A DNA stretch of 64,000 nt, taken from positions 2,064 to 66,063 of the forward strand of contig CAYNRN010000003.1 in NCBI GenBank assembly GCA_964399915.1, written 5' to 3'. Both the position numbers and the translations under genes were made by a program. Below, piece by piece: positions 34,398-60,435 of the stretch. The stretch is from an uncultured Planctomycetales bacterium (lineage in GTDB: Bacteria; Omnitrophota; Gorgyraeia; Gygaellales; Profunditerraquicolaceae). A model generated the notes under the pieces. That model searched no databases. It saw only the letters and a program-made list of their open reading frames with translations, and was not told the DNA's origin. Within the stretch, counting starts at the first letter, position 1; the number at the start of each line of letters is the position of its first letter.

Positions 34398-34398
34398 G

Positions 34399-35309: not shown

Positions 35310-35312
35310 AAG

Positions 35313-35789: not shown

Positions 35790-35802
35790 GAGGAGGCTCT
35801 TA

Positions 35803-36039
35803 ATGGCTAAGTCGGTAAAAGTATACTCTACGCCAACTTGCCCCTGGTGCATTAAAGTTAAGCAGTTCCTTTCCGAAAATAATATCGCTTTTGAGAACTT
35901 TGATGTATCAAGCGATCAGGATAAAGCCCAGGAGATGATTAATAAAACCGGGCAGATGGGCGTGCCGGTTATCGACGTTGAAGGCGAGATCATCGTCGGG
36001 TTTGATAAAGATAAGATAAAACGAACCTTAGGAATATGA
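35803..36039 (+). CDS. Glutaredoxin-like protein (NrdH/YruB family)
   Basis: CPWC active site (VYSTPTCPWCIKVKQFL). GVPVI cis-Pro motif. 78 aa. Confidence 0.8.
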   Translation: MAKSVKVYSTPTCPWCIKVKQFLSENNIAFENFDVSSDQDKAQEMINKTGQMGVPVIDVEGEIIVGFDKDKIKRTLGI

Positions 36040-37443: not shown

Positions 37444-38889
37444 ATGCTGCAATATTTTATGGGGATGTTCAGGAGTATCCGGGTCATCGATTTTATTGAT
37501 ATTGCGATTATCGCGATTATGATTTATTTAGTGTTATTGTGGTTGAAAAAGGCCCGGGCGCGTTTTATCCTCATCGGCATGATCATTATCGGGCTGATCT
37601 ATGTTCTAGCAAAGATTTTCAGTCTTTATATGACAACCATGTTTTTCCAGGGGTTCTTCGCGATCCTGTTAATTATGGTGGTAATAATCTTCCAGGATGA
37701 ATTCCGCCACTTCTTTGAGAGAGTAGCGGTATTGGGGACGCAGAGAAGGCGCCGGGGCGTATCCTACGGGCAGGATATTGAAATTTTAAGCAGCGCTATA
37801 GCAAATCTGTCACGTAAACAAATCGGCGCACTGGTGGCTATCCGGGGCCGGGATCCGCTAGACCGCCACCTGGAAGCCGGTATCCGCGTTGACGGGCTTC
37901 TCAGCCAGGTATTGCTTGAAAGCCTGTTTGACCCGCATGCCCCGAGCCATGACGGGGCAGTGATTTTAGACGGCGGCAGGGTAGGGCGCTTTAGCGCTTA
38001 TCTCCCTCTTTCTACCAACGTCAATGAAATCGGCAGGTCCGGGACACGTCATGCCGCGGCCTTAGGCTTAACCGAGCGCTCGGATGCGCTTTGTATAGTA
38101 GTTTCCGAAGAGCGCGGCACAATTTCCGTTGCCGAAGCCGGACGTATCCGGGAATTATCCGATCCGGCCCAGCTTAATAGTATCTTGGCAGATTTTTACC
38201 GCAGCCGCTATCCGGAGAAAAAGGGGTCTACCCTTACGGATTTATTGGCCGGCCATCTTTCTGAGAAGATACTGGCAATTATATTGGCAGCGGCAATCTG
38301 GGCGATCTTCGGATATCAGAAAGACATCATCCGCCGCGATTTTGTGATTCCGGTAGAATACCGGAATCTTTCGCAGGATAGAATAATTGGCGAACCTAAA
38401 CCCAAAGAAGTAACTATTACTCTCAACGGCGCAGAGCGGGCCTTTAATATGGTCGACCCTAAAGAGCTTAAGCTTTCCCTGGATATGTCCAAGGTCCAAG
38501 ACGGAGAGAATAATATTATATTGAATGAGGAAATGGCACGTTACCCTGCCGGCTTCTCGGTATTAAACATTGAACCCGAACGAATCAAACTTAAGATTGA
38601 AAGGATGGTTACATTTACCGTTCCCGTAGAAGTAAAGACGCAAGGGACGCTTCCCGCGGGGTTGTCTTTAGTCCAGATAAAGGTTGAGCCTAAAGAGATA
38701 CAGGTAGTAGCCCCCAGCACGCTTCCTACGGGAAAAATCAATATCACTACCGACGTTATCGACTTAAAAACCATAACAGCAACCACAACGTTTACTCCTA
38801 AACTGATAGTCCCGCCGCAGGTGACTTTAACCGCGAATAAATATCTGGATATCAAAGTCACTGTCGAAGTGGAAACCAAGGAAAAATAG
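37444..38889 (+). CDS. cdaA: Diadenylate cyclase CdaA fused to a YbbR-like (CdaR regulator-type) C-terminal domain
   Basis: Three N-terminal TM helices. DAC domain (HDGAVILDGGRVGRFSAYLPLS...GTRHAAALGLTERSDALCIVVSEERGTISVA). Then a fourth TM and about 200 aa of beta-rich YbbR-like repeats. Confidence 0.7.
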   Translation: MLQYFMGMFRSIRVIDFIDIAIIAIMIYLVLLWLKKARARFILIGMIIIGLIYVLAKIFSLYMTTMFFQGFFAILLIMVVIIFQDEFRHFFERVAVLGTQRRRRGVSYGQDIEILSSAIANLSRKQIGALVAIRGRDPLDRHLEAGIRVDGLLSQVLLESLFDPHAPSHDGAVILDGGRVGRFSAYLPLSTNVNEIGRSGTRHAAALGLTERSDALCIVVSEERGTISVAEAGRIRELSDPAQLNSILADFYRSRYPEKKGSTLTDLLAGHLSEKILAIILAAAIWAIFGYQKDIIRRDFVIPVEYRNLSQDRIIGEPKPKEVTITLNGAERAFNMVDPKELKLSLDMSKVQDGENNIILNEEMARYPAGFSVLNIEPERIKLKIERMVTFTVPVEVKTQGTLPAGLSLVQIKVEPKEIQVVAPSTLPTGKINITTDVIDLKTITATTTFTPKLIVPPQVTLTANKYLDIKVTVEVETKEK

Positions 38890-38907
38890 CACGAGCAGGG
38901 AAGAATT

Positions 38908-40386
38908 ATGTGGACAAAAGAAAGCCTGCAGGCATTGATTAAAGAGAAGCTGGAAGATTACCTCTTTGTGGTTGTTTCTAACCGGCAGCCTTATGTGCAT
39001 ACTTTTAAAAGAGGCAGGGTTGAATACCGGAGAGGCGCCGGCGGAGTAGTTACTGCCCTTGACCCGGTAATGCAGGCCTGCCACGGGCTTTGGGTAGCGT
39101 TCGGCAGCGGAGACGCTGACAGGAAGGTAAGCGACGCGCAGGGTAAGTTAGGAGTTCCCCCTGAAAGCCCCAACTATACCCTCAGGAGAGTATGGCTTAC
39201 TAAGGAGGAAGAAAACGGTTATTATTTCGGGTATTCCAACGAGGCACTCTGGCCGCTTTGCCATATGGCATTTCAGCGCCCGGTGTTCCGCAAAGAAGAC
39301 TGGGAATATTATGTCAAGGTAAATAAAAAATTCGCCCAGGCAGTAGCCGAAGAGGTAAATCATAAGAAGGCATTTATCTGGATACAGGATTACCATCTTT
39401 GCCTACTGGGAAAATTTTTAAAAGAGCTCCTGCCGGGCAAGATCATTGTTTCGCACTTCTGGCATATTCCCTGGCCGAATTATGAAACTTTCCGCATCTG
39501 TCCGCAAAAGAAAGAGATACTCGAGGGGCTCCTGGCGAATGATTTGATGGGTTTTCATATCCGCAACCACTGCGCTAATTTTATCGAGGCAATAGACAGA
39601 GAGATAGAAAGCAAGATAGACCGCGAACGTTTTTCCGTTATCCGCGGCGGGCACGAAACCATTGTCCGGCCGTATCCGATCAGCGTAGATTTTGAAGGGA
39701 TCAGCAGTTTTTCTGCTGCCGGAGAAGCGGATAAAATAGGGCAGGCGCTGATTGAAGAATTCAGCCTCAGCGGTCTAAAAGTTATGCTGGGCTTAGACCG
39801 CATAGATTATACAAAAGGTATTCCGGAGAGGTTACTGGCGATAGACGCGCTTTTTGAGGCGCACCCGGAGTTGAAAGAAAAGATTGTTTTTCTGCAGATG
39901 GGGGAGATCAGCCGTATCCATATACCTAAATATAAGGAATTGAACGATGAAATTAACGCTCTGGTCGAACAGATAAACTGGAAACACTCTACCGGTGAGT
40001 GGAGGCCGGTAATTTTAGTAAGGAGGCACCTTTCATTCAAGGAACTGGCGGGTTTCTACCGGATGGGGGAGGTATGTATTGTCAGCTCTTTACATGACGG
40101 CATGAACTTGGTAGCTAAAGAGTTTATTTCCTCGCGTTCGGATGAGAATGGCATGCTGGTCTTAAGTCAATTTACCGGCGCTGCGCGCGAATTGACCGAC
40201 GCGATACTGGTTAATCCCTTTGACCGCCATCAGTTCAGTGAAGGCATCTACCAGGCATTGAATCTGCCTTCGGAAGAAAAGCAGAAGAGGATGAATAAGA
40301 TGCGCGCCATAATCCAGCAGAATAATATCTTCCGTTGGGCAGGCAAGGTGCTTTCAGAACTTTTAAAGTTTGAGTTTAAGGAATGA
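38908..40386 (+). CDS. otsA: Alpha,alpha-trehalose-phosphate synthase (GT20)
   Basis: GT20 family motifs (LWVAFGSGD, IWIQDYHL, HFWHIPWP, SLHDGMNLVAKEF). 492 aa. Confidence 0.85.
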   Translation: MWTKESLQALIKEKLEDYLFVVVSNRQPYVHTFKRGRVEYRRGAGGVVTALDPVMQACHGLWVAFGSGDADRKVSDAQGKLGVPPESPNYTLRRVWLTKEEENGYYFGYSNEALWPLCHMAFQRPVFRKEDWEYYVKVNKKFAQAVAEEVNHKKAFIWIQDYHLCLLGKFLKELLPGKIIVSHFWHIPWPNYETFRICPQKKEILEGLLANDLMGFHIRNHCANFIEAIDREIESKIDRERFSVIRGGHETIVRPYPISVDFEGISSFSAAGEADKIGQALIEEFSLSGLKVMLGLDRIDYTKGIPERLLAIDALFEAHPELKEKIVFLQMGEISRIHIPKYKELNDEINALVEQINWKHSTGEWRPVILVRRHLSFKELAGFYRMGEVCIVSSLHDGMNLVAKEFISSRSDENGMLVLSQFTGAARELTDAILVNPFDRHQFSEGIYQALNLPSEEKQKRMNKMRAIIQQNNIFRWAGKVLSELLKFEFKE

Positions 40387-41186
40387 AGTATCTCTTACGC
40401 TATTGGCGCGTTTTGCCCGGGAAGGCCCGCGCTAAATATAAAGTTTTATTTTTAGATTTTGACGGTACTCTGGCGAAGATTGTAAAAAGCCCCCGTAAGG
40501 CCAGGATTGAGCCGTCAATTAAACTTTTATTGCTCCGAATAACGCAGGATAAGGCATACAGGGTTGCAGTTATCAGCGGTAGGGCGCTTGGCGACATCAA
40601 GAAGAGGGTCGGGATTAAAGGCATTGTTTATATCGGGAATCACGGTTTGGAAATTGACGGCTCCAAGATCAGGTTCTCTGGCTTTCAAATTGATAAATTC
40701 AGGTTAACGCTCAAACGGCTGAAGGCAAAACTGAAACAGAGGTTAGATCCGATAAAAGGGATTTTTATAGAAGATAAAGGATTAAGCTTGAGTGTACATT
40801 ACCGCTTGGTTAAAAAAAAGGACTTGGCCTTTTTTAAAGCCGCTTTTGCACAGATAACTGCTGAATATGCCTCCGGCAATAAAATAAAAATCCATCCGGG
40901 GAAGAAAGTTTTTGAGATCCGCCCTCCTCTGCAATGGGATAAAGGCAAAGTTGCGCTCTGGCTTTTAGCCAGATGGAAGTCCGCTTTTGCGGATAAGGAG
41001 GTATTGACGGTTTACATCGGAGATGATCTCACCGATGAAGATGCTTTCCGGGCTCTCGCGGGTAAGGCTATAACGGCGGTAGTGGGTAAAAGGAAAGATT
41101 CGGCAGCCGCTTACTATTTAAATAACGTAGGGGAAGTAGCAAGATTCTTAAACGTTCTGGGGCCGGCAAAATGCCTAAAATTATAA
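40383..41186 (+). CDS. otsB: Trehalose-6-phosphate phosphatase (HAD-IIB)
   Basis: HAD motif I FLDFDGTLA, motif IV GDDLTDEDAF. Start overlaps the otsA stop (ATGA). Confidence 0.8.
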   Translation: MKYLLRYWRVLPGKARAKYKVLFLDFDGTLAKIVKSPRKARIEPSIKLLLLRITQDKAYRVAVISGRALGDIKKRVGIKGIVYIGNHGLEIDGSKIRFSGFQIDKFRLTLKRLKAKLKQRLDPIKGIFIEDKGLSLSVHYRLVKKKDLAFFKAAFAQITAEYASGNKIKIHPGKKVFEIRPPLQWDKGKVALWLLARWKSAFADKEVLTVYIGDDLTDEDAFRALAGKAITAVVGKRKDSAAAYYLNNVGEVARFLNVLGPAKCLKL

Positions 41187-41842
41187 AAGCTAAAGAGCCG
41201 TTTAGGTTTTACACGCGTTTGCATTTATCAGAACTGACCGGATTAAAGGCGGTTAATCTCTCTCAACTTCTGGGAATCTTAAAAGAAGTTCCCGGTTCAA
41301 GCATATACCATCATACGCACAGGTTCCTACAGCAGCACCAATATCTTTCTCCCGAGCCTCCGAATGATTTTGCCTACTGGGTTTCCAGCGTCCTTGCCGA
41401 AGATGCCCTTGCCGAAGAACTGGCCAGTATCGATACCATCCAGTATTCTAATATCCGCAGCCTCAGGGAGAAGATAATCCAGACTATAGAAGATTACCTT
41501 AAAGAACACCCTATGGCAAAGTTGAAATTCGCCAACGAAGAGGAAGCTTTTTATTTTATCAAATCAATCAGTTTCGTTGTGCCGACAAAATACGTGGCGC
41601 ATGATTTAAAAGAGTTCATCAGCATCCTGGAAAGAGTGACCGTAGATTCGATATATTTCCATATCTTTGAGGCCCGCCTGAGGCTTGAGAAGCAGACTAA
41701 TGACTTCTCTTTATGGATCGAGACCTCTTTAGGCGATAAGCCGCTGGCGGATAGAATCGCCAATATTGACCCATATACGCGCACGCTTGAAGACTTACGC
41801 AGAACCTTAATCCGCATAATCGAAAGGAAGGTTTCATCATAA
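41171..41842 (+). CDS. Hypothetical protein conserved in the trehalose locus (223 aa, soluble)
   Basis: No recognisable catalytic motif. Overlaps both the otsB end and the treT start, implying co-translation with them. Confidence 0.4.
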   Translation: MPKIIKAKEPFRFYTRLHLSELTGLKAVNLSQLLGILKEVPGSSIYHHTHRFLQQHQYLSPEPPNDFAYWVSSVLAEDALAEELASIDTIQYSNIRSLREKIIQTIEDYLKEHPMAKLKFANEEEAFYFIKSISFVVPTKYVAHDLKEFISILERVTVDSIYFHIFEARLRLEKQTNDFSLWIETSLGDKPLADRIANIDPYTRTLEDLRRTLIRIIERKVSS

Positions 41843-41845
41843 AGC

Positions 41846-43057
41846 ATGGCACGCATCGACGAATATATCCCAATTGTCGGAGAATCAATTATCGATGACC
41901 TTCGGCTGATCGCCGAAAAGCTTAAAGGTAAAGTCATCCAGCATATAAATTCTACACCGGTAGGCGGAGGGGTCGCCGAGATTCTCAATTGCATGGTCCC
42001 GCTCCTAAAGGAGCTTGGCGTTGATACCCGATGGGATGTGATTAAGGGGGGTGAACAGTTTTTTAGTACGACTAAGAAATTCCATAACGCCCTGCACGGA
42101 AGGCGCGAAAACATTACTGACAGGGATTTTGAGGTTTTTCTTGAAACGAGCAACCACAATATTGAAGAAGTAAATACTTACGGGGATATTGTCTTTGTGC
42201 ACGACCCCCAACCGATTGCGCTGATAAGGAAGAAGGCCGAAAACAAATGGATCTGGCGTTGTCATATCGACGTATCAAATCCTGACAGTAAAGTCTGGAG
42301 TTTTCTCCGCGATTTCGTGGTTAAATACGATTCAGCGGTATTTTCAGCGCCCGGATTTTCACAGCCGCTGCCGATCAGGCAATTCCTGATTTCGCCTTCC
42401 GTCGACCCTTTAAGCGATAAAAATAAGGAATTGCCTCAAGCTGATGTTGAAGCAGTGATGAAGAAGCACGGGATACGTAAAAATAAGCCGGTAATCACTC
42501 AGATCTCGCGTTTTGACCGGCTAAAGGATCCGCTGGGGGTAATCCAGACATATAAACTGGTAAAAAAATATACCGATTGCCAACTGGTGCTTGCCGGAGG
42601 CACTGCTTCTGATGACCCGGAAGGGGCGCAGGTCCTGGAAGAGGTAAGGGAGGCAGCTAAAGGGGATTCCGATATCCATATTTTACTCTTACCGCAGAAC
42701 GACCTGGAGATAAACGCACTGCAAAGGGGCTCTACGGTTATCATGCAGAAATCCCTGAGAGAGGGGTTTGGCCTTACGGTTTCAGAGGCGCTCTGGAAGG
42801 CAAAACCTGTGGTTGCTTCCCATGTCGGAGGCATCCCGCTTCAGATAAAGCATAAATATTCCGGGCTTCTCTGCCATTCTATAGAAGGCGCCGCCTTTGC
42901 CCTCAAACAACTTTTAAACAGCCCGGAATACGCAAAGAAGCTGGGCGCAAACGGGAAGGAGCATATCCGCAATAACTTTTTGATCACCCGGCACCTGAGG
43001 GATTATATACTTTTATTTCTCTCGCTTTTTCATCCCGAAGACATCGTTAACCTTTAA
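41846..43057 (+). CDS. treT: Trehalose glycosyltransferring synthase TreT-like GT4 glycosyltransferase
   Basis: The N-terminus (IPIVGESIIDDLRLIAEKLKGKVIQHINSTPVGGGVAEILNCMVPLLKELGVDTRWDVIKGG..FF..TKKFHNALHG) closely mirrors archaeal TreT. GT4 C-terminal EGFGLTVSEAL. Confidence 0.65.
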   Translation: MARIDEYIPIVGESIIDDLRLIAEKLKGKVIQHINSTPVGGGVAEILNCMVPLLKELGVDTRWDVIKGGEQFFSTTKKFHNALHGRRENITDRDFEVFLETSNHNIEEVNTYGDIVFVHDPQPIALIRKKAENKWIWRCHIDVSNPDSKVWSFLRDFVVKYDSAVFSAPGFSQPLPIRQFLISPSVDPLSDKNKELPQADVEAVMKKHGIRKNKPVITQISRFDRLKDPLGVIQTYKLVKKYTDCQLVLAGGTASDDPEGAQVLEEVREAAKGDSDIHILLLPQNDLEINALQRGSTVIMQKSLREGFGLTVSEALWKAKPVVASHVGGIPLQIKHKYSGLLCHSIEGAAFALKQLLNSPEYAKKLGANGKEHIRNNFLITRHLRDYILLFLSLFHPEDIVNL

Positions 43058-43077: not shown

Positions 43078-43105
43078 CTTGACAAATACGCTAAATTGTG
43101 TATAC
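43078..43105 (+). promoter_or_regulatory. Promoter TTGACA-16-TATACT upstream of the second Rrf2 regulator; it shares its -35 context (AAAAAcTCTTGACAAAT) with the first Rrf2 promoter
   Basis: cTTGACAAATacgctaaattgtgTATACT. Confidence 0.5.
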
Positions 43106-43136
43106 TCTACTAAGATAATAGAGATTATAGGATAAT

Positions 43137-43577
43137 ATGAGGATAACCTATAAAGGGGATTACGCCTTAAAAGTTATTTTGAATTTAAGCCTGCATTACG
43201 GCGGCGGCCTGGTGACGATTCATGATTTAGCCAGGCGACTGGACATACCGGTCAAGTTCCTTGAGCAGATACTGCTGGATTTAAAAAGAGGCGGTTTCCT
43301 CCAGAGCAGGCGCGGTAAAATCGGAGGTTATTCTTTGGCTAAAGCCCCGGCTAAAATAAAGCTGGGGGAGGTAATCAGGTTTATTGACGGGCCGGTCAGC
43401 CCGGTTGCCTGTGTAGATAAGAGTTATAAGGGGTGCAGTGATATCACCACCTGCGTATTCAGGGAAATCTGGCAGCGCATCGCCGCTTCAACTGCCGCGA
43501 TAATCGATAATATCACTTTTGAAGACCTGACGAAGAAGATCAAAAGGGCGGGCAAGGCACTGGTTTATCAAATTTAA
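43137..43577 (+). CDS. Rrf2 family transcriptional regulator, CymR-like (cysteine-metabolism repressor type)
   Basis: Rrf2 wHTH ([23 protein letters not shown]...[42 protein letters not shown]). Directly precedes cysK, as in the Firmicutes cymR-cysK arrangement. Confidence 0.7.
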
Positions 43578-43581
43578 AACT

Positions 43582-44505
43582 ATGCGCATAGCTAAAAATA
43601 TTACAGAATTAATCGGCAATACTCCTTTGGTGAGGTTAAACAGGGCCACTGAAGGCTGTGTTGCAGAGGTGGTCGCGAAATTAGAGTCCTTTAATCCCTG
43701 CTCTTCGGTGAAGGACCGTATCGGCCTGAGTATGATTGAGGCAGCGGAAAAGGAAGGCAGGATTAAAAAAGGCGCTGTGATCATAGAGCCCACCTCCGGT
43801 AATACCGGCATTGCCTTGGCTTTTGTCTGCGCGGTGAAAGGCTATAAACTGATCCTGACTATGCCCGAGACGATGAGTACGGAGCGCAGGCAGCTTTTGA
43901 CCGCTTTTGGCGCGGAGATTATCTTAACGCCCGGGGCGGAGGGGATGTCCGGGGCAGTCAGGAGAGCGGAAGAACTGGCAAAAAAAGAAAAGAACTATTT
44001 TATATTACAGCAATTCAGGAATCCGGCTAACCCAGAAATCCACCGGAAAACCACAGCCGTTGAAATCTGGCAGGATACCGGAGGAAAAGTTGATATTCTG
44101 GTAGCGGGAATCGGCACAGGAGGCACAATCACCGGCGTATCAGAAGTAATCAAGAGGAAAAAACCTTCACTTAAGGTAATCGCCGTAGAGCCGAAAGATT
44201 CTCCGGTGCTTTCCGGAGGCAAGCCCGGCCCCCATAAGATCCAGGGTATAGGCGCGGGGTTTGTTCCTGAAATCCTGAATAGCAAAATAATCGATGAAAT
44301 TATTCAGGTCTCTAATGAAGAAGCGATAGAGGCATCCAGGCAGCTTGCCAAGAAAGAGGGGATTTTGGCGGGTATTTCTTCCGGGGCGGCTGTCTTTGCG
44401 GCGCTTGAAGCCGCCCGCAGGAAAGAAAACAGAGATAAACTGATAGTAGTCATTCTTCCGGATACCGGAGAGCGCTATCTCAGCACTGAATTATTCAAAG
44501 AATAG
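43582..44505 (+). CDS. cysK: Cysteine synthase A (O-acetylserine sulfhydrylase)
   Basis: PLP-lysine motif [25 protein letters not shown]. Confidence 0.9.
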
Positions 44506-44517
44506 AAAGGAGATCCC

Positions 44518-44745
44518 ATGGCCATAAAAGATAAGGTTGAGCAAGCGTTGAACAAAGTGCGCCCGATGCTGGCAGCCGACGGCGGCAACGTAGAGTTAGT
44601 AGATGTCAGCGCAGACGGAGTCGTAAAATTAAAGCTTACCGGAAGCTGCGGCTGTTGCCCGATGTCGCAGATGACGCTGAAGATGGGGGTAGAAAAGATA
44701 ATCAAAAAAGACGTGCCGGAGGTAAAAGAAGTAATCGCTATCTGA
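44518..44745 (+). CDS. NifU-like Fe-S cluster carrier domain protein (Nfu)
   Basis: 75 aa with GSCGCCPMS (CxxC cluster-binding) and the NifU C-terminal-domain pattern. Confidence 0.75.
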   Translation: MAIKDKVEQALNKVRPMLAADGGNVELVDVSADGVVKLKLTGSCGCCPMSQMTLKMGVEKIIKKDVPEVKEVIAI

Positions 44746-44798
44746 AATTGAGGGCAGGAGCTACCATATAGATCATCCAAGAGTTTACGGGAGAGTCC

Positions 44799-46001
44799 AT
44801 GAAAACAATTAAAGAAATCAATGATAAGATAAAGAAGGGCCAGGCGGTAGTGGTTACGGCCGAAGAGATTATAGATCTGGTTGATAAGAAGGGGCCAAAG
44901 AAGGCCGCTGAAGAAGTCGACGTAGTCACTACCGGCACCTTCGGCCCGATGTGTTCTTCCGGGGCATATTTTAATATCGGGCATTCGAAACCCAGGATAA
45001 AGTTAGGAGGAGGAAGCTGTAAGCTTAATGATGTTCCGGCTTACTGCGGATTCGCCGCGGTAGACATTTATCTGGGAGCGACTGCCGTGCCGGATGACGA
45101 CCCTTTGAACAAGGTATTCCCCGGTGAATTTAAATATGGCGGCGCCCATGTGATAAATGAGATTGTCGCAGGGCGCGATGTGCGCCTTCAGGCAACGGCA
45201 TACGGGACAGATTGTTATCCCAGGAAGAAACTGGAAACCATGGTCAATATCAGGGATTTAAACGAAGCAGTATTATTTAATATCCGCAACTGCTATCAGA
45301 ACTATAATGTGGCGGTAAATCTCTCGGATAAGATAATCTATACCTATATGGGGGTATTGAAGCCTAACCTGGGTAACGCCAACTATTGCTCAGCAGGGCA
45401 GCTTTCCCCGCTTTTGAAAGACCCTCACTATAAAACAATCGGCATCGGGACAAAGATATTTCTAGGCGGGGGTATCGGATATGTAGCATGGCAGGGGACT
45501 CAGCATAACCCAAGCGTAAAGAGGAAAGAAAACGGGATACCTCAGGCGCCTGCCGGCACACTTGCGGTAATCGGCGACTTGAAACAGATGAAACAGGAAT
45601 GGCTTACGGGAATCAGTATGCTTGGTTACGGAGTTACGCTAACCGTGGGCATAGGGGTCCCTATTCCGGTGCTTGATGAGGAGATAGTTAAATACGCGGC
45701 GGCAGGTGACGAACAGATATTCGCGCAGGTAGTGGATTACGGCAAGAGTTATCCGGAGTGCGTACCGGGGTCGTTGGCAGAAGTCAATTATGCCCAGCTG
45801 AAAACCGGCAAGATTACCGTTCAGGGTAAAAGTATCCCTACAGGCAACTTATCCAGCTATTCCAAGGCGCGCGAGATCGCCGAGGAGCTGAAGTCATGGA
45901 TTAAGAAAGGCGATTTCCTGCTTAGCGAGCCGGTAGCAAGATTGCCCGGCGCAGAATCCGGGTATACCTTTAAGATGCTCAACGAAAGGCCGATAGTATA
46001 A
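44799..46001 (+). CDS. DUF39/COG1900 homocysteine-biosynthesis protein (MA1821-type L-aspartate-semialdehyde sulfurtransferase family)
   Basis: 400 aa with a characteristic N-terminus (KTIKEINDKIKKGQAVVVTAEEIIDLV...VDVVTTGTFGPMCSSGAYFN). Immediately followed by an NIL-ferredoxin partner. Confidence 0.6.
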   Translation: MKTIKEINDKIKKGQAVVVTAEEIIDLVDKKGPKKAAEEVDVVTTGTFGPMCSSGAYFNIGHSKPRIKLGGGSCKLNDVPAYCGFAAVDIYLGATAVPDDDPLNKVFPGEFKYGGAHVINEIVAGRDVRLQATAYGTDCYPRKKLETMVNIRDLNEAVLFNIRNCYQNYNVAVNLSDKIIYTYMGVLKPNLGNANYCSAGQLSPLLKDPHYKTIGIGTKIFLGGGIGYVAWQGTQHNPSVKRKENGIPQAPAGTLAVIGDLKQMKQEWLTGISMLGYGVTLTVGIGVPIPVLDEEIVKYAAAGDEQIFAQVVDYGKSYPECVPGSLAEVNYAQLKTGKITVQGKSIPTGNLSSYSKAREIAEELKSWIKKGDFLLSEPVARLPGAESGYTFKMLNERPIV

Positions 46002-46028
46002 CCTATTGCGGTATTTAAGAGGTGAGAA

Positions 46029-46436
46029 ATGACCCGTAAAAGAATTGTTTTGCATTTCCCCCACAGATTGGTTGATCAGCCGATTATCTATAAGTTGGTC
46101 AAAGAGCATGACCTGCAGTTTAATATCCTCAAGGCCTATGTTACGCCGCAGGAGGAAGGGCTGATGGTCCTGGAACTATCCGGCAAAAAAGAGAATTTTG
46201 AAAAGGGGATACAATATCTGGAATCCTGCGGGGTAAAGATTCAGCCTCTGAGCCAGGATGTGATCCGCAATGAAACCAAATGCACCGATTGCGGCGTATG
46301 CGTGCCGATCTGTCCGACGGCAGCCCTGGCCATCGATCCGATAACCCGCAAAGTGCACTTCTACGATAATAAATGTATCGCCTGCGAGCTCTGCGTAAAG
46401 GTTTGCCCTGCCCGCGCCATGGAAGTACGCTTCTAA
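46029..46436 (+). CDS. NIL domain + 2x[4Fe-4S] ferredoxin protein (MA1822-type partner)
   Basis: N-terminal NIL-like domain (IVLHFPHRLVDQPIIYKLVKEHDLQFNILKAYVTPQEEGLMVLEL). C-terminal CTDCGVCVPICP and CIACELCVKVCP. Confidence 0.65.
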   Translation: MTRKRIVLHFPHRLVDQPIIYKLVKEHDLQFNILKAYVTPQEEGLMVLELSGKKENFEKGIQYLESCGVKIQPLSQDVIRNETKCTDCGVCVPICPTAALAIDPITRKVHFYDNKCIACELCVKVCPARAMEVRF

Positions 46437-47273
46437 ATGAATAAACTGAAAAAATTAAGGTCGATAATCAGAAACGCGGGTTCTCTGCTGATTGCTTTTT
46501 CCGGCGGCGTTGACAGCACATTCCTGCTTAAGGTTGCCTCCGAAGTTTTGCCTCGAGACAAGCTACTTGCTGTTACAGCCGATTCCGCTACTTATCCGGC
46601 CGAAGAATTATTATCCGCTAAATGCAGCGTAAAAAGATTAGGCGTAAGGCATAAAATTGTAAAGACAAAAGAGCTCAAGGATAGTAGATTTTCGGCAAAT
46701 CCGGTAAATCGCTGTTATTTCTGTAAAAGCGAACTTTTTCTCAGGCTAAAAAAGCTCGCTAAAGAAGAAAAATTAAATTTTGTAGCCGATGCCAGTAATA
46801 CCTCGGATAAATTTGATTTTCGTCCGGGCGCTAGAGCGAAAACTGAGCTGAAGATACGCTCTCCGCTGGCTGAGGCAGGGTTGGCCAAGAGAGATATCCG
46901 CATGCTTAGTAAAAAGATAGGGTTAGATACCTGGGATAAGCCGGCATTGGCCTGCCTGGCCTCAAGGGTTCACTACGGAATCAAAATAGACCAGCGGCTT
47001 TTAAACAAGATAAATCAGGCAGAGAATTTAATACGCAGGGACGGTTTCAGGCAGGTGAGGGTTAGGCATTATAATAACGGGCTTTGCCGGATAGAGGTGC
47101 CTAAGAAAGAGGTCGGCCTGTTGATTAAGAGGGGTAATTTGCTGGTAGAAAAGCTCAAAAAATTAGGATATAATTATGTAACCGTAGATTTAGAAGGTTA
47201 TCGCACGGGAAGCATGAATCCAACCCTTCCTAAGGCAAGGGCCGGGTTCATTAAGAGAGGAAGGACTGGGTGA
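46437..47273 (+). CDS. LarE-like PP-loop ATPase (COG1606 ATP-dependent sulfur transferase family)
   Basis: PP-loop AFSGGVDSTFLLKVA, CYFCK, and an ACLASR conserved-Cys region like the LarE Cys176 context. Confidence 0.6.
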   Translation: MNKLKKLRSIIRNAGSLLIAFSGGVDSTFLLKVASEVLPRDKLLAVTADSATYPAEELLSAKCSVKRLGVRHKIVKTKELKDSRFSANPVNRCYFCKSELFLRLKKLAKEEKLNFVADASNTSDKFDFRPGARAKTELKIRSPLAEAGLAKRDIRMLSKKIGLDTWDKPALACLASRVHYGIKIDQRLLNKINQAENLIRRDGFRQVRVRHYNNGLCRIEVPKKEVGLLIKRGNLLVEKLKKLGYNYVTVDLEGYRTGSMNPTLPKARAGFIKRGRTG

Positions 47274-48436
47274 AAAGAGTATATTTAGATTATTCGGCTA
47301 CTGCGCCGACTGACCCGCGGGTAATTAAGGCGATGCAGCCTTACTTTTTTGAGGCCTTCGGCAACCCCGCCAGTATCCATTCTTTCGGACAGGAGGCAAA
47401 GAAGGCGATAGAAGATGCGCGGGAGAAGACGGCCGGATTCCTCGGCGCTAATCCCGCTGAGATAATCTTTACTTCCGGAGGCACCGAATCGGATAATTTT
47501 GCGCTTTTTGGGGTAGCCCGCGCCATGAAAGGCAAAGGCAACCATATTATTACCAGCGCAATCGAACACCATGCTGTCAGCGAACCCTGTAAATTCCTGC
47601 AGAAAGAGGGTTTTCAGATTACCGCTGTTAAACCGGATACCAGCGGTATAGTTTCTCCGGATGATGTCAAAAAAGCGATTACCGCAAAAACTATCCTCAT
47701 CTCGGTGATGCATGCTAATAATGAAATCGGCACAATCCAACCGATAGCAGAAATAGGAAAAATTGCCAGGGGCAAAGGCATCTATTTTCACAGCGATGCC
47801 GTGCAGAGCGTAGGGCATATTCCCGTAAACGTTGACGAGTTAAACGTCGACCTGCTGTCGCTTTCCGCCCATAAATTTTACGGCCCTAAGGGCGTAGGCG
47901 CATTATATATAAGGAAAGGCACGCGCATAGAGGCTTTTTTACACGGCGGAGACCAGGAAAAAGGCAGAAGGGCCTCGACGCAGAATACGCCCGGTATCGC
48001 CGGCCTGGCAGAAGCCCTGGTTATCTGTTCGAAAGAGATGGAGCAAGAAGCGCGTTTCCAGTCCGGCCTGCGCGATAAATTAATCAAAGAAATACCAAAA
48101 AGGATTAGCGAAGTTATTCTAAACGGGCATCCCGTAAAGCGCCTTCCTAACAACGTCAACTTCTCGATGAGATATATTGAGGGCGAGTCGATTCTGCTTA
48201 ATCTTGATCTGCTCGGTATCGCCGCTTCTACGGGGTCCGCCTGTACTTCTACCAGCCTTGAGCCTTCACACGTCTTGCTGGCGATAGGGCTTACTGCCGA
48301 TGTAGCTCATGGTTCCCTGAGGATCACCATGGGCAGATGGACCAAAGAAAGCGATATTGATTATCTCCTGGAACAGCTGCCGCCGGTTGTGCAGAAACTG
48401 CGTTCAATGTCGCCTCTCTACGAAAAGAAACAATAA
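47270..48436 (+). CDS. nifS: Cysteine desulfurase (NifS/IscS class)
   Basis: PLP-lysine SAHKFYGPKGVGALYIRKG. Active-site loop STGSACTS. 388 aa. Confidence 0.85.
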   Translation: MKRVYLDYSATAPTDPRVIKAMQPYFFEAFGNPASIHSFGQEAKKAIEDAREKTAGFLGANPAEIIFTSGGTESDNFALFGVARAMKGKGNHIITSAIEHHAVSEPCKFLQKEGFQITAVKPDTSGIVSPDDVKKAITAKTILISVMHANNEIGTIQPIAEIGKIARGKGIYFHSDAVQSVGHIPVNVDELNVDLLSLSAHKFYGPKGVGALYIRKGTRIEAFLHGGDQEKGRRASTQNTPGIAGLAEALVICSKEMEQEARFQSGLRDKLIKEIPKRISEVILNGHPVKRLPNNVNFSMRYIEGESILLNLDLLGIAASTGSACTSTSLEPSHVLLAIGLTADVAHGSLRITMGRWTKESDIDYLLEQLPPVVQKLRSMSPLYEKKQ

Positions 48437-48438
48437 TC

Positions 48439-49395
48439 ATGCAGGAAAAGATCATTGATTTCCTAAAATCCAAACAGGGCTATGCCTCAGGCGAAGAGAT
48501 CAGCCAGCGCTTGAGAATCAGCAGGCAGGCGCTTTGGAAGCATATACAACACCTTAAAGACTCAGGTTACGGCATCGAAGCAGTCCCGCATCTGGGATAT
48601 CAGCTTTGCGGCCTTCCTGACAGGTTATTCCCCTTGGAGATTTCAAGTTCTCTTCAGACAAAGATTATCGGTAAAAAGATTTATTACTTTGACCTGGTGC
48701 ATTCTACTATGGATAGCGCGGCAGAATTGGCCCGGAAAAATTGCCCCGAGGGCACGCTGGTGGTGGCGGAATCCCAATCTAAAGGCAGGGGGAGGCTGGG
48801 CAGAGAATGGTCTTCCCCAAAATATAAAGGCATATATATATCTTTGATCCTGCGCCCTAAAATCTTGCCTTCTCAGGCCCCGGTATTCACTCTCCTATCG
48901 GCAGTAAGCGCCTGCGAAGCGCTGAAGGAAGCCTGCGCTTTAAGCGCGCAGATAAAGTGGCCTAATGATTTAATGGTAAACAATAAAAAGATCGGCGGAA
49001 TTCTCACTGAACTTAATGCCGAAACCGACGAAGTGCATTCTCTGATTATCGGCATCGGCATTAATGTGAATAACGATAGAAAATCTCTGCTTAACCAGGC
49101 TACCTCCGTAAAAGAGGAGAAGGGCCAGGCAGCCAGCAGGATAGGCCTGCTGCAGGAATTGCTGCGTAAACTGGAAGTTAATTATCTAACGCTGCAGGAA
49201 GAGGGCACGCAGCCGATTATTGAGAAATGGCGCCTGCTCAATATTACTTTAGGCAGAAGGATAAAGATATCCTCCCACAACCGGCTGATAGAAGGAGAGG
49301 CTTCGGACATAGATGCCGACGGGGCGTTATTATTAAGAAAGGATTCCGGGTTAACCCAGAGAATAACTTCCGGCGATGTAATGCATTGCCGATAA
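48439..49395 (+). CDS. birA: Bifunctional biotin--[acetyl-CoA-carboxylase] ligase / biotin operon repressor BirA
   Basis: N-terminal HTH (YASGEEISQRLRISRQALWKHIQHLKDSGYGIE), BPL catalytic domain (GRGRLGREWSSP) and C-terminal SH3-like domain. Confidence 0.8.
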   Translation: MQEKIIDFLKSKQGYASGEEISQRLRISRQALWKHIQHLKDSGYGIEAVPHLGYQLCGLPDRLFPLEISSSLQTKIIGKKIYYFDLVHSTMDSAAELARKNCPEGTLVVAESQSKGRGRLGREWSSPKYKGIYISLILRPKILPSQAPVFTLLSAVSACEALKEACALSAQIKWPNDLMVNNKKIGGILTELNAETDEVHSLIIGIGINVNNDRKSLLNQATSVKEEKGQAASRIGLLQELLRKLEVNYLTLQEEGTQPIIEKWRLLNITLGRRIKISSHNRLIEGEASDIDADGALLLRKDSGLTQRITSGDVMHCR

Positions 49396-49419: not shown

Positions 49420-49448
49420 TTGACGATTGAACCGCACCGGATTATAAT
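49420..49448 (+). promoter_or_regulatory. Near-consensus sigma70 promoter TTGACG-17-TATAAT for the TonB-dependent receptor
   Basis: Hexamers at 49420-49425 and 49443-49448. Embedded in the loop of a terminator-like hairpin (AACCGCAC 49430-49437 / GTGCGGTT 49472-49479 + T7). Confidence 0.55.
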
Positions 49449-49589
49449 TATTCAGCTTAGATTATGAAAAAGTGCGGTTTTTTTATACATTCGCGGCCCA
49501 AGAACCCCATCCCGGAAGAGGAGGGTAAAAAAGGGCCGCTCAGTATCAACCATAACAGGTCTCGGCTTAAAATCCGAGGGAGCTATTGG

Positions 49590-51362
49590 TTGATTTTTAT
49601 TTTTCTTTGTTGCTATCGGTGCCTCTGGGCGCAGGATAATAGCCTAGAAGACTTAGAGCGCATCGTGGTTACTAAAAGCAAAATCCACCTCTATAAAACC
49701 TACGACCTCGATCAAGACGACCTAAAGGACCTCCCTTTTAATTCCCCTCTGGAAACCCTTACTTTAACCGAATTAGATTTGCAGGCGCGCGCGGCCAAGG
49801 GCGCGATTCAGGATGATTTTTCTCTGCGTGGCTCGACCTTCCAGGGGGTCTTAGTATTATTTAACGGACAGCGTATTAATGATCCCCAGACCGGACACCA
49901 CAATAGCGATATCCCGCTTACCCGCGCAGATATCAAAAGGATAGAAATAACTCCGGGTGTCAGTTCCGCGGTATTCGGGCCCGATGCAATAGGGGGGGCG
50001 TTGAATTTTATCCTGAAAAAACCCGAAGAAAATAAGCTCCTTCTGGAGTTTAGCGGCGGCCAGCATACCAGCCACTCTTCGCTTTTCAGTATTACCCGCA
50101 GAATCGATCAGGCAGGAATCAGGGTTTCCGTCGAGAATAACCAGTCCGACGGATACCGCGAAGATACCGATTTCAAAAAGTTTAATGCGACAGCGGATTC
50201 AACTATCGGTATACCGTTAGGAGAAATCCGGGCAAGCTACGGATATCAGGAGAAAGAGTTCGGCGCCCCGGACTTTTATACTCCCGGCAGCAACTATCTT
50301 TCGCAGGAATGGACTAAGACGCATCTTTTAAACGCCGGAGCAAATATCATCAAGGAAGGATTGTTGATCAGGCCGAATTTTCTCTGGCGCCGGCACTTTG
50401 ACAAATTTTTACTGGATAAGACGCTGATACGCAGCAGTTATCTGAATCATCACCGCACGGATATGCTGACACCCAATATTTACCTGCAAAAAGAGCTTGT
50501 CCCTCTAGGCAGGGTAGGGTTTGGCCTTGAATACGGCCAGGAGCTTATAAACTCTACTAATCTGGGAAAGCACGGCAGGGCCCATACAAGCGTTTACCTT
50601 GACCAGAGCAAAGATTTAATGCAGGGTTTCTCTTTTGGCTTGGCTGCGCGCAGCGACGATTTTGAAGGGTTTGACCGCAAGTTCTCCGGCTCCGGTAGCC
50701 TGCGCTACAGTTTTTTAACCGCCAGTTCCCTTACTTTAGGGTTATCCCGCAGCATCCGCGTTCCCTCTTTTACTGAGCTTTACTACAGCGATCCTACTAC
50801 CGAAGGAAATCCCGATCTCAGCGCGGAAAAATCCGTCAATTACCAGCTGGAGTATAATTACGCAGGAGAAGATTTTTCTTTCTCTCTGGCGGCTTTTTTA
50901 CGCGATGAAGACGAATTTATAGATTGGGTAAAACGCGCGCCCTCCCAGAGCAAGTGGGTGGCGGAGAATATCGGCGAGGCGTATGTTTCGGGATTCGAAA
51001 ACAACTTATCCCTGAAGATAAATCAATACCTGGAATTGAAGGCAAACTATACCTATACCGATAAGAATATCCGCGAGAAACAATATCTTTATAAATACGG
51101 GCCTAATTATGCGCGCCACCTATTGAATAACCTGCTTGAATTTAATCTGCCTTTCGGCAGGCAGGTGGTTAGCTACAGCTACAAGAAAAAAGACGGCCGC
51201 GGCGGCTGGTCGCTGTTAAATTTATCCCTTTCCTATGGCCTCCTTAAGCATTCCCGCATCTTTTTTAAAGCCACGAATATCCTGGATAAACGCTATGAAG
51301 AGATACTCGGCGTGCCGCAGCCCGGCCGTTGGCTTGAAGGCGGCTTAAGCTTTGAGTGGTAA
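49590..51362 (+). CDS. TonB-dependent outer-membrane receptor
   Basis: Plug-domain motifs (TonB box-like DLERIVVT; LRGSTFQGVLVLFNGQRINDP), 22-strand barrel length, C-terminal aromatic GLSFEW. Start is uncertain: TTG 49590 follows RBS GAGGGA and gives a short signal peptide, whereas the ORF-track ATG 49464 lies inside the terminator hairpin. Confidence 0.8.
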   Translation: MIFIFLCCYRCLWAQDNSLEDLERIVVTKSKIHLYKTYDLDQDDLKDLPFNSPLETLTLTELDLQARAAKGAIQDDFSLRGSTFQGVLVLFNGQRINDPQTGHHNSDIPLTRADIKRIEITPGVSSAVFGPDAIGGALNFILKKPEENKLLLEFSGGQHTSHSSLFSITRRIDQAGIRVSVENNQSDGYREDTDFKKFNATADSTIGIPLGEIRASYGYQEKEFGAPDFYTPGSNYLSQEWTKTHLLNAGANIIKEGLLIRPNFLWRRHFDKFLLDKTLIRSSYLNHHRTDMLTPNIYLQKELVPLGRVGFGLEYGQELINSTNLGKHGRAHTSVYLDQSKDLMQGFSFGLAARSDDFEGFDRKFSGSGSLRYSFLTASSLTLGLSRSIRVPSFTELYYSDPTTEGNPDLSAEKSVNYQLEYNYAGEDFSFSLAAFLRDEDEFIDWVKRAPSQSKWVAENIGEAYVSGFENNLSLKINQYLELKANYTYTDKNIREKQYLYKYGPNYARHLLNNLLEFNLPFGRQVVSYSYKKKDGRGGWSLLNLSLSYGLLKHSRIFFKATNILDKRYEEILGVPQPGRWLEGGLSFEW

Positions 51363-51706: not shown

Positions 51707-52798
51707 ATGAACAAACGCGCAGTCGTTGCGATGAGCGGAGGGGTAGATTCTTCAGTTGCCGCGGCGATTTTAAAAAGCAAGGGTTTTGAAGTAATCGGGA
51801 TGACAATGTGTTTTGGATTAAGCGAACAGGCGCGCCGTAAACCTTCCTGCTGCGGTATCAGGGGCATTGAGGATGCCCGGCGTGTTGCCGATAAGCTGGG
51901 CATCAGGCATTATGCCGTGAATATGCACAGGCACCTGGAAAAATTCGTGATCAGCGATTTTTGCCATGAATATCTTTCCGGGAGAACGCCGAATCCTTGC
52001 GTACGCTGCAATCAGTTCTTGAAATTCTCAATTCTTCTGGATAAGGCGCGCGCCCTGGGAGCGGATTTTCTTGCCACGGGGCATTACGCCCGTATAGCAA
52101 AATCCCGGGCCGCAAACCGCAAACCGCAAACTTATTTACTCAAAAAAGCCAGGGATAAAAGCAAAGACCAGTCGTATTTTTTATACCGCTTAACCCAGAA
52201 ACAGCTAAAACAGGTACTATTCCCGCTGGGAAATTATACAAAACCTCAGGTCCGCCTCTTGGCAGGGAAGTTTGGCCTGCCGGTAGCTGATAAAAAAGCA
52301 AGCCAGGAGATATGTTTTTTGGGGGACGATGATTACCGTAATTTTTTGCGTAAGCAGATGGGAAGGCAAATCTATCCCGGCGAAATCTTAGACAGCGCAG
52401 GAAAACCGCTCGGCTGCCATAAAGGGATCGCTTATTACACCATCGGGCAGCGCCAGGGTTTAGGCATAGCTTTCGGAAAACCGGCATACATCAGCCGTAT
52501 TGACGCTGCTAATAACCGTATTACTATCGGCCCGAAAGAGGAGGTGGTCAGCTCTGATTTTCTGGTTAGAGAAGTTAATTTTGTCTCTGAGCCGATAAAA
52601 AAGAAAATTGTGCTTAATGTTAAAATACGCTATAATCATAAAGAAGCGCCTGCAGAAGTTTCATCTGCCAGGGGCGTACTAAAAGCGCATTTTAAAATTC
52701 CGCAGTTTGCGATTACCCCGGGCCAATCAGCGGTATTCTATAAATCCGACAGGTTAATCGGCGGAGGGATAATAGAGAAGGTGTTAAACCATGATTAA
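51707..52798 (+). CDS. mnmA: tRNA-specific 2-thiouridylase MnmA
   Basis: PP-loop VAMSGGVDSSVAA and catalytic-Cys contexts (PNPCVRCN, EICFL). 363 aa. Confidence 0.85.
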   Translation: MNKRAVVAMSGGVDSSVAAAILKSKGFEVIGMTMCFGLSEQARRKPSCCGIRGIEDARRVADKLGIRHYAVNMHRHLEKFVISDFCHEYLSGRTPNPCVRCNQFLKFSILLDKARALGADFLATGHYARIAKSRAANRKPQTYLLKKARDKSKDQSYFLYRLTQKQLKQVLFPLGNYTKPQVRLLAGKFGLPVADKKASQEICFLGDDDYRNFLRKQMGRQIYPGEILDSAGKPLGCHKGIAYYTIGQRQGLGIAFGKPAYISRIDAANNRITIGPKEEVVSSDFLVREVNFVSEPIKKKIVLNVKIRYNHKEAPAEVSSARGVLKAHFKIPQFAITPGQSAVFYKSDRLIGGGIIEKVLNHD

Positions 52799-53714
52799 GA
52801 AAAAGAATTGGGGAGGGCTGGAGGATAAAATCGCCGCTTTAAAAAAGAAGCGCGATGCCGTGATCCTGGCGCATAATTACCAACTGCCCGAAGTGCAGGA
52901 TGTGGCTGATTACCGGGGCGATTCGCTGGAGTTAAGCCGTATTGCCGCCAAGACAGATGCCAAGGTAATCGTCTTCTGCGGCGTGCATTTCATGGCGGAA
53001 ACTGCTTCCATACTCTGCCCGAAAAAGAAAGTCATCATGCCGGATATCCATTCCGGATGCCCGATGGCAGATATGATTACCGCCCAGCAATTAAGGGGGC
53101 TTAAAGAGGAACATCCCCGGGCAGTGACCGTCGGCTATGTAAATACCTCCGCCGAAGTAAAGGCGGAACTCGACGTCTGCTGCACGTCTACCAATGCCGT
53201 AGCCGTAGTCAACGCTTTTAAGGCAAGCGAAGAAATTATTTTCGTTCCTGATAAATATTTGGCGGATTACGTCTCTAAACAGGCCGGAAGAAAACTTATC
53301 TCCTGGAGAGGCTTCTGCCCCACCCATATTAAAATCCTGCCGCAGGATATCGAAAGGGAAAGGAAATTTCACCCTTTTGCCAAGGTGGTTGTCCACCCTG
53401 AATGCCTGCCGGCGGTAGTGGCTTTAGCTGATGCCGCGCTTTCTACCAGCCAGATGTCCAAATACGCCCGGGAGAGCGAGGCCAAGGAATTCATCGTCGG
53501 CACAGAAGTCGGCCTGATCTACCGCCTGAAGAAGGATAATCCGGCAAAGGAATTTTACCCGGCAAGCGAGGCAGCAGTCTGCCCTAATATGAAACGGACT
53601 ACCCAGGAGAAGATCGTCTGGGCGCTTGAAGAGCTGAAGGAAGAGGTCAGGGTATCCGATGAGCTGCGCAGGCGCGCCAAAAAAGCAATAGACAGGATGC
53701 TGGAAATAATCTGA
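52791..53714 (+). CDS. nadA: Quinolinate synthase A
   Basis: NadA pattern ILAHNYQ, three-fold repeat with conserved Cys (FCGVHFMAE, CCTSTNA, VCPNM). 307 aa. Confidence 0.85.
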   Translation: MIKKKNWGGLEDKIAALKKKRDAVILAHNYQLPEVQDVADYRGDSLELSRIAAKTDAKVIVFCGVHFMAETASILCPKKKVIMPDIHSGCPMADMITAQQLRGLKEEHPRAVTVGYVNTSAEVKAELDVCCTSTNAVAVVNAFKASEEIIFVPDKYLADYVSKQAGRKLISWRGFCPTHIKILPQDIERERKFHPFAKVVVHPECLPAVVALADAALSTSQMSKYARESEAKEFIVGTEVGLIYRLKKDNPAKEFYPASEAAVCPNMKRTTQEKIVWALEELKEEVRVSDELRRRAKKAIDRMLEII

Positions 53715-57602: not shown

Positions 57603-57603
57603 A

Positions 57604-60433: not shown

Positions 60434-60435
60434 AT

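Follow-up and report, generated by a model that had tools for sequence, protein, structure and literature searches.

Gene content and layout of the operon

The subject of this analysis is a cluster of forward-strand genes for the predicted assimilation and trafficking of reduced sulfur, located in a 64,000-nucleotide stretch (hereafter, the window) of contig CAYNRN010000003.1 from an uncultured bacterium of the Omnitrophota (assembly GCA_964399915.1). The original prediction had described seven contiguous genes, and seven + strand open reading frames (ORFs) were found at exactly its coordinates, 43137-48436. The first encodes an Rrf2-family regulator (43137..43577; PF02082, 125 bits). It is followed by the gene of CysK, an O-acetylserine sulfhydrylase (cysteine synthase A; 43582..44505; TIGR01139, 493 bits, cutoff 351) with the pyridoxal phosphate (PLP) lysine in the motif SSVKDR, and by that of an Nfu-type Fe-S cluster carrier corresponding to the NifU C-terminal domain (44518..44745; PF01106, 98 bits), with cysteines at positions 44, 46 and 47. 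The fourth product, HcyBio, is a DUF39/COG1900a protein and the putative catalytic subunit of an L-aspartate-semialdehyde sulfurtransferase (hereafter L-ASST; 44799..46001; PF01837, 516 bits), while the fifth combines a NIL domain with a 2x[4Fe-4S] ferredoxin (NIL-Fd; 46029..46436; PF09383 and Fer4 families). The last two of the seven are LarE, a PP-loop ATP-dependent sulfur insertase, predicted to be of the [4Fe-4S] type (46437..47273; TIGR00268, 315 bits, cutoff 150), and NifS, a class I cysteine desulfurase (47270..48436; TIGR03402, 563 bits, cutoff 531).

Profile searches confirmed all seven families, including those proposed for the regions 44799-46436 (PF01837, then PF09383 with Fer4) and 46437-47273 (TIGR00268), but the seven-gene outline had left out birA. 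This gene (48439..49395, + strand) encodes a biotin-protein ligase with an N-terminal helix-turn-helix of the repressor type (TIGR00121, PF08279, PF03099, PF02237). Since birA begins 2 nt past the end of nifS and keeps this position in other Omnitrophota (9 of the 14 fully flanked loci), we consider the operon to consist of eight genes, 43137-49395. From the Rrf2 gene to nifS, the intergenic gaps are, in order, 4, 12, 53, 27, 0 and -4 nt.

Based on a promoter scan, we localized a sigma-70-type promoter at 43079..43106 (+ strand), one base away from the single promoter predicted at 43078-43105, with a -35 box TTGACA (43079-43084), a 16-nt spacer and a -10 box TATACT (43101-43106); 11 of the 12 consensus positions of the two hexamers are matched. 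The expectation that no internal terminator would break the operon also held, as the candidates found are weak, are all situated inside coding regions and do not exceed the frequency in shuffled sequences (11 against 9.3 +/- 2.9). Control by a riboswitch or another RNA element was rejected, given that the whole window contains no match to an Rfam family at its gathering score and that the leader is just ~25 nt long. A promoter-like sequence, TAGAAA-17-TATAAT (47146-47174; 10 of 12 matches), was observed inside the 3′ end of larE, approximately 100 nt upstream of nifS, and could act as an internal promoter for nifS-birA, although the count of such sites in the region is equal to the shuffle expectation.

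The Rrf2 regulator and its putative operator

The Rrf2 protein contains exactly three cysteine residues, C92, C100 and C106, in the region where cluster-binding Rrf2 proteins bear their ligands. These residues are kept in 28 of 30 Rrf2 proteins encoded upstream of cysK/HcyBio in other genomes. Three residues past the last of them there is an arginine, where the IscR ligand set has a histidine. The protein scores 90 bits with both the CymR model (NF047409, cutoff 195) and the IscR model (TIGR02010, cutoff 207). Its closest solved structure is 4CIC, listed as a BadM/Rrf2-family regulator and corresponding to the IscR of Thermincola potens; CymR is second. Taken together, these features suggest that the regulator is probably an Fe-S-type, cluster-binding Rrf2 protein that is neither CymR nor IscR proper.

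The original label was CymR-like, which would imply a cluster-less Rrf2 repressor sensing the cysteine status through a complex with CysK. In an HcyBio-anchored scan of species-representative genomes, which yielded 80 loci, we counted the neighbours within 6 kb at the 41 loci with at least 4 kb of sequence on either side (fully flanked loci), and Rrf2 adjoins CysK in 22-23 of these. In addition, CymR ranks among the top matches, both as a model and as structures, and the cymR transcript of B. subtilis also covers a cysteine desulfurase gene and mnmA, a similar gene set. Against this, the score is far under the equivalog cutoff, the three conserved cysteines occupy the positions of the ligands in cluster-binding Rrf2 proteins, which CymR is not known to have, and the nearest solved relative is 4CIC rather than CymR. 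A CymR-type mode of regulation is therefore quite unlikely, and we have abandoned the label.

Directly after the -10 box, an operator-like element (43105..43132, + strand) consists of an imperfect 19-bp palindrome, CTCTACTAAGATAATAGAG (43105-43123), followed by a third half-site, ATTATAGG. The palindrome, with half-sites arranged as CTCTACTAA-N-TAATAGAG, overlaps the end of the -10 box. Both promoter hexamers and the operator-like element are invariant in seven orthologous Omnitrophota loci, where the proteins are merely ~60-70% identical. In the window, CTCTACTAAGATAATAGAG has a single perfect match, while six matches occur at up to three mismatches, against 1.35 expected. We infer that the product of the Rrf2 gene binds the 43105-43123 palindrome, and the position of this conserved element next to the -10 box makes the Rrf2 control originally proposed for the operon plausible. 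A near-palindrome, CTCTATGAAGATAAAAGAG, with 2-3 mismatches to the operator-like site, is located at 18914-18932, where a CBS-domain gene begins just downstream of BioY; as a second operator copy, it cannot be told from chance.

The DUF39 protein and its NIL-ferredoxin partner

HcyBio covers the PF01837 profile fully (positions 1-349 of 349). The aligned COG1900 representatives that share the motifs MCSSG and GTDCYPRK match it along its entire length with 45-52% identity. The cysteines of these motifs, C52 and C139, respectively, are invariant in the alignment and correspond to Cys54 and Cys131 of MA1821. Cys54 has been reported to be essential in MA1821, and the two residues together define COG1900a (PMC12068725). 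One of the aligned representatives, P0122, carries a C-terminal extension of the type described for methanogen L-ASST. With the coenzyme M (CoM) synthase model TIGR03287 (marker 16, COG1900d), HcyBio scores 121 bits against a cutoff of 364, and it has neither the inserted ferredoxin domain nor a CBS domain. Because both COG1900a cysteines are kept, the marker-16 score is low and the inserted ferredoxin domain is missing, HcyBio is, as judged from its sequence, of the homocysteine-forming COG1900a type and not of the coenzyme M type, in agreement with the subfamily originally proposed. Its AF2 model has a pLDDT of 91, and no solved fold relative was found for it.

The NIL-Fd gene lies 27 nt downstream of that of HcyBio, and its product carries CxxCxxCxxxCP motifs at residues 85-95 and 116-126. 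At 34 of the 41 fully flanked loci the two genes are adjoining, and NIL-Fd may serve as the electron-donor or regulatory subunit of the putative homocysteine enzyme. Genetic and biochemical studies of the DUF39/NIL-Fd pair have been reported (PMC5764234, PMC4045070, PMC12068725), and the NIL domain has been reported to bind methionine (PMC12068725). No metA, metB, metX or metY gene was found in the window.

COG1900 members carry out chemically analogous reactions, and L-ASST may partly replace CoM synthase (PMC12068725), so one could imagine that the pair makes another thiol, such as a coenzyme-M-like or other aldehyde-derived compound. We judge this highly improbable in view of the identity of HcyBio to representatives with both motifs, P0122 among them, the absence of the inserted ferredoxin domain and of the marker-16 signature, and a partner whose NIL domain is a reported methionine binder.

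LarE, NifS and Nfu

LarE matches the L. plantarum LarE structures with E = 1e-46, and its PP-loop spans S22-G-G-V-D-S27. S176, R208 and R210 are the equivalents of the L. plantarum phosphate-binding residues S180, R212 and R214; together with those of K101, R133, R181 and E200, these equivalents are invariant in 15 HcyBio-linked LarE proteins. The differences concern the cysteines: a CxxC motif (C93, C96) stands where L. plantarum LarE has W97 and A100, and C173 is located one residue past the sacrificial Cys176, whose own position is occupied by an alanine. The same CxxC...C pattern occurs in T. maritima LarE, which holds a [4Fe-4S] cluster, is non-sacrificial and is recharged by a cysteine desulfurase with cysteine (PMC9283937). 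The LarE-like PP-loop ATPase of the original prediction can thus be kept and, from its residues, refined: the protein is of the predicted [4Fe-4S], non-sacrificial type. The 4-nt overlap of larE and nifS fits the mechanism of a desulfurase-recharged LarE, as in T. maritima. NifS itself has its PLP lysine, K202, in SAHKFYGPKG and the catalytic Cys325 in GSACTS. In some relatives, an IscU gene lies between those of NifS and BirA (L017).

Conservation of the cluster in Omnitrophota and other phyla

The nearest source-named homologs of LarE are labelled Candidatus Omnitrophota or Omnitrophica, and identical proteins in the same gene order were found in several metagenome assemblies. The block Rrf2-CysK-Nfu-HcyBio-NIL-Fd-LarE-NifS-BirA-TonB receptor is present in Omnitrophota contigs whose LarE is 65-69% identical to that of the window, and the full block also occurs in species-representative genomes (L016-L020, L029) and in one further metagenome contig (L129). 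As the same order recurs in contigs with differing flanks, the arrangement is not due to chance. Some Omnitrophota blocks lack LarE or NifS individually (L021, L025, L035), and HcyBio-NIL-Fd-BirA without LarE in the block was observed in L025, L026, L031 and L038.

The 80 loci of the HcyBio-anchored scan came from Omnitrophota, Dehalococcoidia/Chloroflexota, Desulfobacterota lineages, Spirochaetota, Elusimicrobiota, Planctomycetota, Aerophobetes, Sumerlaeota, Actinomycetota and Saganbacteria. Around HcyBio, the 41 fully flanked loci contain NIL-Fd in 34 cases, CysK in 23, Rrf2 in 22, COG2122 in 13, NifS in 11 and LarE in 10, and the core Rrf2-CysK-HcyBio-NIL-Fd was found in ~10 phyla. Unbiased clustering of the neighbouring ORFs recovers COG2122 (PRK04334/UPF0280), sulfide-dependent Thi4, ThiF/MoeB, CysE, IscU and NadA, and other sulfur or Fe-S enzymes in these neighbourhoods are MnmA, a ThiI-like protein and a BioB-like protein. 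COG2122 was identified as PRK04334 in 22 other loci; by position, that of the D. mccartyi locus L042 corresponds to DET0919.

These data bear on the possibility that the cluster is a set of independent housekeeping genes, syntenic in Omnitrophota through a lineage-specific gene order and sharing neither regulation nor a sulfur logic. Two members without an obvious sulfur role, BirA and the TonB-dependent receptor, are equally conserved in the block, nearly the whole 64-kb window is co-directional, and LarE or NifS is missing from some Omnitrophota blocks, as noted above. Nevertheless, the core and the enrichment in sulfur enzymes extend over ~10 phyla with differing gene orders, the genes are separated by only 0-53 nt with one overlap, and the conserved promoter and palindrome lie upstream of the Rrf2 gene only. 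Mere synteny is accordingly an improbable explanation.

LarE as a recurrent neighbour of DUF39

LarE adjoins HcyBio-NIL-Fd in at least five sampled lineages and in differing arrangements: the Omnitrophota clade, Syntrophia/Thermodesulfobacteriota (L058, L059, L061, L098, L102), Planctomycetota (L083), Saganbacteria (L091) and an unclassified bacterium (L095). The Syntrophia-type loci have the order MnmA-LarE-ThiI-like. In D. alaskensis G20, the DUF39 methionine gene Dde_3007 (PMC4045070) adjoins Dde_3008, annotated as LarE (PMC12363597). Where 4 kb or more of downstream sequence was available (51 HcyBio loci), LarE alone is present in 12 loci, COG2122 alone in 15, and both together in none.

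To cover LarB and LarC, queries verified by Pfam in one locus (LarB as AIRC and LarC as Ni_insertion, both in L107) were used in tblastn searches over 2.12 Mb of sequence. An earlier motif screen for the two proteins had returned nothing in the first 1.36 Mb. The LarE-anchored loci, used as a positive control, later validated it, but tblastn took its place because the LarC genes present in L059 and L061 had escaped it. In these two Syntrophia-type loci, LarC is located ~3 kb upstream of an Rrf2-CysK-HcyBio-NIL-Fd-MnmA-LarE-ThiI-like cluster; no LarB was detected within either locus. LarC (Ni_insertion), two small Pfam-less proteins and TilS were observed ahead of that cluster (L059 85-3962, L061 3805-7931). 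We also scanned metagenome contigs from the LarE side, which gave 37 long LarE-anchored loci, with HcyBio in three of them. In a neighbour-joining (NJ) tree, HcyBio-linked LarE proteins are interspersed with LarB/LarC-linked ones and do not form a single clade. Given this mixed phylogeny and the LarC genes near Syntrophia-type clusters, the protein of the window is most likely a genuine LarE placed in a sulfur-supply operon, as far as sequence comparison can tell.

The recurrent adjacency also invites the reading that LarE, charged by NifS, belongs to the DUF39 homocysteine pathway, in the slot that COG2122 fills in Dehalococcoidia and Desulfovibrio. In a broader form, the DUF39/NIL-Fd homocysteine synthase would depend on LarE in many anaerobes. 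LarE would act as a [4Fe-5S] sulfur donor, driven by ATP and recharged by NifS, or else would produce a thiocarboxylated pyridinium nucleotide or a pincer cofactor used by HcyBio. Such a dependence would explain the recruitment of larE beside DUF39 in at least five lineages and G20, as well as the failure to find it beside any COG2122-containing cluster. The zero gap between the NIL-Fd gene and larE, and the failure to find LarB or LarC near any Omnitrophota LarE or a solved fold relative for HcyBio, argue for it, and pincer-cofactor enzymes are now being discovered through adjacency to lar genes (PMC13524815).

Several observations argue the other way. G20 also encodes COG2122 elsewhere (Dde_2535), so both genes coexist in one genome, which weakens a strict replacement of COG2122 by LarE, and the genes reported as methionine-rescued in the G20 mutant pools do not include Dde_3008 (PMC4045070). 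Transposon mutants of Dde_3008 are viable and have just moderate defects in defined medium (PMC5193443). Additionally, HcyBio-linked LarE proteins retain all the nucleotide-phosphate-binding residues and are not a clade apart, LarC is found near the cluster in L059 and L061, only 3 of the 37 long LarE-anchored loci have HcyBio, and four Omnitrophota loci have HcyBio-NIL-Fd-BirA without LarE in the block. The mutual exclusion of LarE and COG2122 itself rests on few independent lineages. We consider it unlikely that LarE takes the place of COG2122 in the pathway, and a LarE-dependent homocysteine synthase in many anaerobes is equally doubtful.

Proposed working of the operon

With moderate confidence, we propose that 43137-49395 is one eight-gene unit that brings together the main reduced-sulfur-incorporating functions behind an Rrf2-controlled promoter. 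The gene identities, signature residues, close spacing, promoter and palindrome conservation and synteny are observed; the enzymatic activities, the pairing of regulator and operator, and the routes of sulfur we infer as follows. The first gene product, an Fe-S-cluster-type Rrf2 protein, would control the promoter through the palindrome at the -10 box. CysK would convert sulfide to cysteine, and NifS would mobilize the cysteine sulfur as a persulfide. One part of this sulfur would go into Fe-S clusters, which Nfu may hand on to NIL-Fd, to LarE and to Rrf2 itself, and another part to the open iron of the LarE [4Fe-4S] cluster. With ATP, LarE would then convert a pyridinium-mononucleotide carboxylate to the thiocarboxylate of the nickel-pincer cofactor pathway. 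In parallel, HcyBio and the NIL/2x[4Fe-4S] ferredoxin would reductively combine aspartate semialdehyde with sulfur to form homocysteine, with the NIL domain as the likely site of methionine feedback. BirA would be co-transcribed with these genes.

A number of results weigh against this proposal. COG2122, which is required for the homocysteine pathway in D. vulgaris (PMC5764234), has no tblastn match (as COG2122/UPF0280) in the window, and neither CysE nor an Fe-S scaffold (IscU or SufB) was found there. With tblastn, no LarB or LarC was found in the window, nor did any Omnitrophota locus show one within +/-10 kb of LarE. In the LarE-anchored loci, by contrast with the Omnitrophota, a LarB motif lies beside LarE in 13 of 37 and a LarC motif in 8 of 37 (motif screen, with which the homology search agrees). 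Finally, the NJ tree of LarE was built without support values.

Every module of the operon belongs to a known family; what is new is the composite arrangement. In the literature searched, we found no paper that links LarE with DUF39 or homocysteine synthesis, or that describes an Rrf2-cysK-DUF39 operon. To our knowledge, LarE is currently known solely from nickel-pincer cofactor synthesis. The DUF39 route is the methionine route of many strict anaerobes, such as Dehalococcoides, sulfate reducers and methanogens. Our analysis shows this pathway to be usually tied to CysK behind an Fe-S-type Rrf2 regulator and to sit in neighbourhoods enriched for sulfur-inserting enzymes, with LarE as a recurrent neighbour that was never seen to share a locus with COG2122. 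It also suggests that Omnitrophota, although often regarded as reduced in metabolism, have retained the ability to make cysteine and homocysteine. Should LarE prove to be an ordinary member of its family, the locus would be no more than a common, well-organised sulfur operon.

Other features of the window

Downstream of birA, a gene for a TonB-dependent receptor (49464..51362, + strand; Pfam Plug/TonB_dep_Rec) has its own promoter-like site at 49420-49448, the first strong one after that of the operon, and is probably a separate transcription unit; it is found downstream in 7 of the 14 Omnitrophota loci. Further along the + strand are MnmA, a tRNA 2-thiouridine synthase (51707-52798), and NadA, a [4Fe-4S] quinolinate synthase (52791-53714), both of which are also found in such neighbourhoods in other genomes. 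At 24989-25957 lies the gene of a ThiI-like PP-loop protein that carries an NFACT-R_2 RNA-binding domain, and a radical SAM gene, ThiM and ThiE come after it (to 28421). In the Syntrophia-type loci L058, L061, L098 and L102, a protein of this ThiI/NFACT-R_2 architecture is encoded directly after LarE. Biotin-related genes recur in the sulfur clusters: the operon ends with BirA in Omnitrophota, the Saganbacteria locus has BioY between NIL-Fd and LarE (L091 11743-12351), and in L061 the ThiI-like gene is followed by a BioB-like one of the radical SAM/BATS type (14716-15693). The window has a separate BioY gene at 18331-18894.

An oxygen-stress cluster (30822-36953) begins with a second Rrf2 gene (30822-31226) and further encodes a Fer4 protein, rubredoxin, an FNR-like reductase, a flavodiiron protein, desulfoferrodoxin, PNPOx, rubrerythrin, glutaredoxin and thioredoxin reductase. 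Other Omnitrophota (L007, L009, L011) have this cluster directly upstream of their sulfur operon. In the window, the two are separated by the genes of a cdaA-like diadenylate cyclase and of trehalose metabolism (otsA, otsB, DUF5752, TreT; 37444-43057). The position of the DUF5752 gene (41171-41842; 239 bits) between otsB and the gene of a TreT-like trehalose synthase suggests a role in trehalose metabolism for this uncharacterised family. Genes for a ZIP-family metal transporter and the ferrous-iron transporter FeoB are located at 22223-24940, ~18 kb upstream of the operon. At the other end, 56556-64000 holds a cluster of the membrane-bound [NiFe]-hydrogenase/Mrp-antiporter type (NADHdh, Oxidored_q6, Complex1_30kDa, NiFeSe_Hases), preceded by Fer4_22 and DHODB-type Fe-S/NAD-binding proteins and continued by Mrp-like subunits on a matching contig. 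Nearly all called genes are on the + strand and the GC skew is positive in every 2-kb bin of 1-64000, so the whole window apparently lies on the leading strand of one replichore.

Comparison with known systems

The closest counterpart of the HcyBio pair is the L-ASST pathway, represented by MA1821/MA1822 of Methanosarcina acetivorans, Dde_3007, DvMF_1464/DvMF_0262/DvMF_0044 and DET0921-0919, with which the window shares a full-length PF01837 protein with both cysteines. The gene with a NIL domain and 2x[4Fe-4S] is likewise immediately downstream of HcyBio, and CysK and Rrf2 are upstream, as in many bacterial loci. HcyBio of the window differs in having no CBS domain, which is the bacterial type. 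Compared with the L-ASST loci that contain COG2122, the cluster has no COG2122 but has Nfu before HcyBio, and LarE and NifS directly after the pair.

The NifS/Nfu part resembles the minimal NIF/ISC-like Fe-S modules of anaerobes in combining a NifS above its equivalog cutoff with an Nfu carrier, whereas no IscU/NifU scaffold was found in the operon or the 64 kb. With the LarE proteins of T. maritima (with IscS as donor) and L. plantarum (PDB 5UDQ), that of the window shares the SGGxDS motif and the phosphate-binding Ser/Arg/Arg. It further shares with the T. maritima protein the CxxC...C triad, displaced by one residue relative to Cys176 of L. plantarum, and here the desulfurase gene overlaps larE. 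In contrast to both, its gene is not clustered with larB/larC and sits in a cysteine/homocysteine operon, its activity being predicted from sequence.

As in the CymR regulon of Firmicutes and in IscR-type systems, the Rrf2 gene is first in an operon with cysteine-metabolism or desulfurase genes, and a palindromic site is located at the promoter, a likeness of position. The Rrf2 protein of the window differs from CymR and IscR in scoring far under both equivalog cutoffs, and from CymR in having three candidate Cys ligands.

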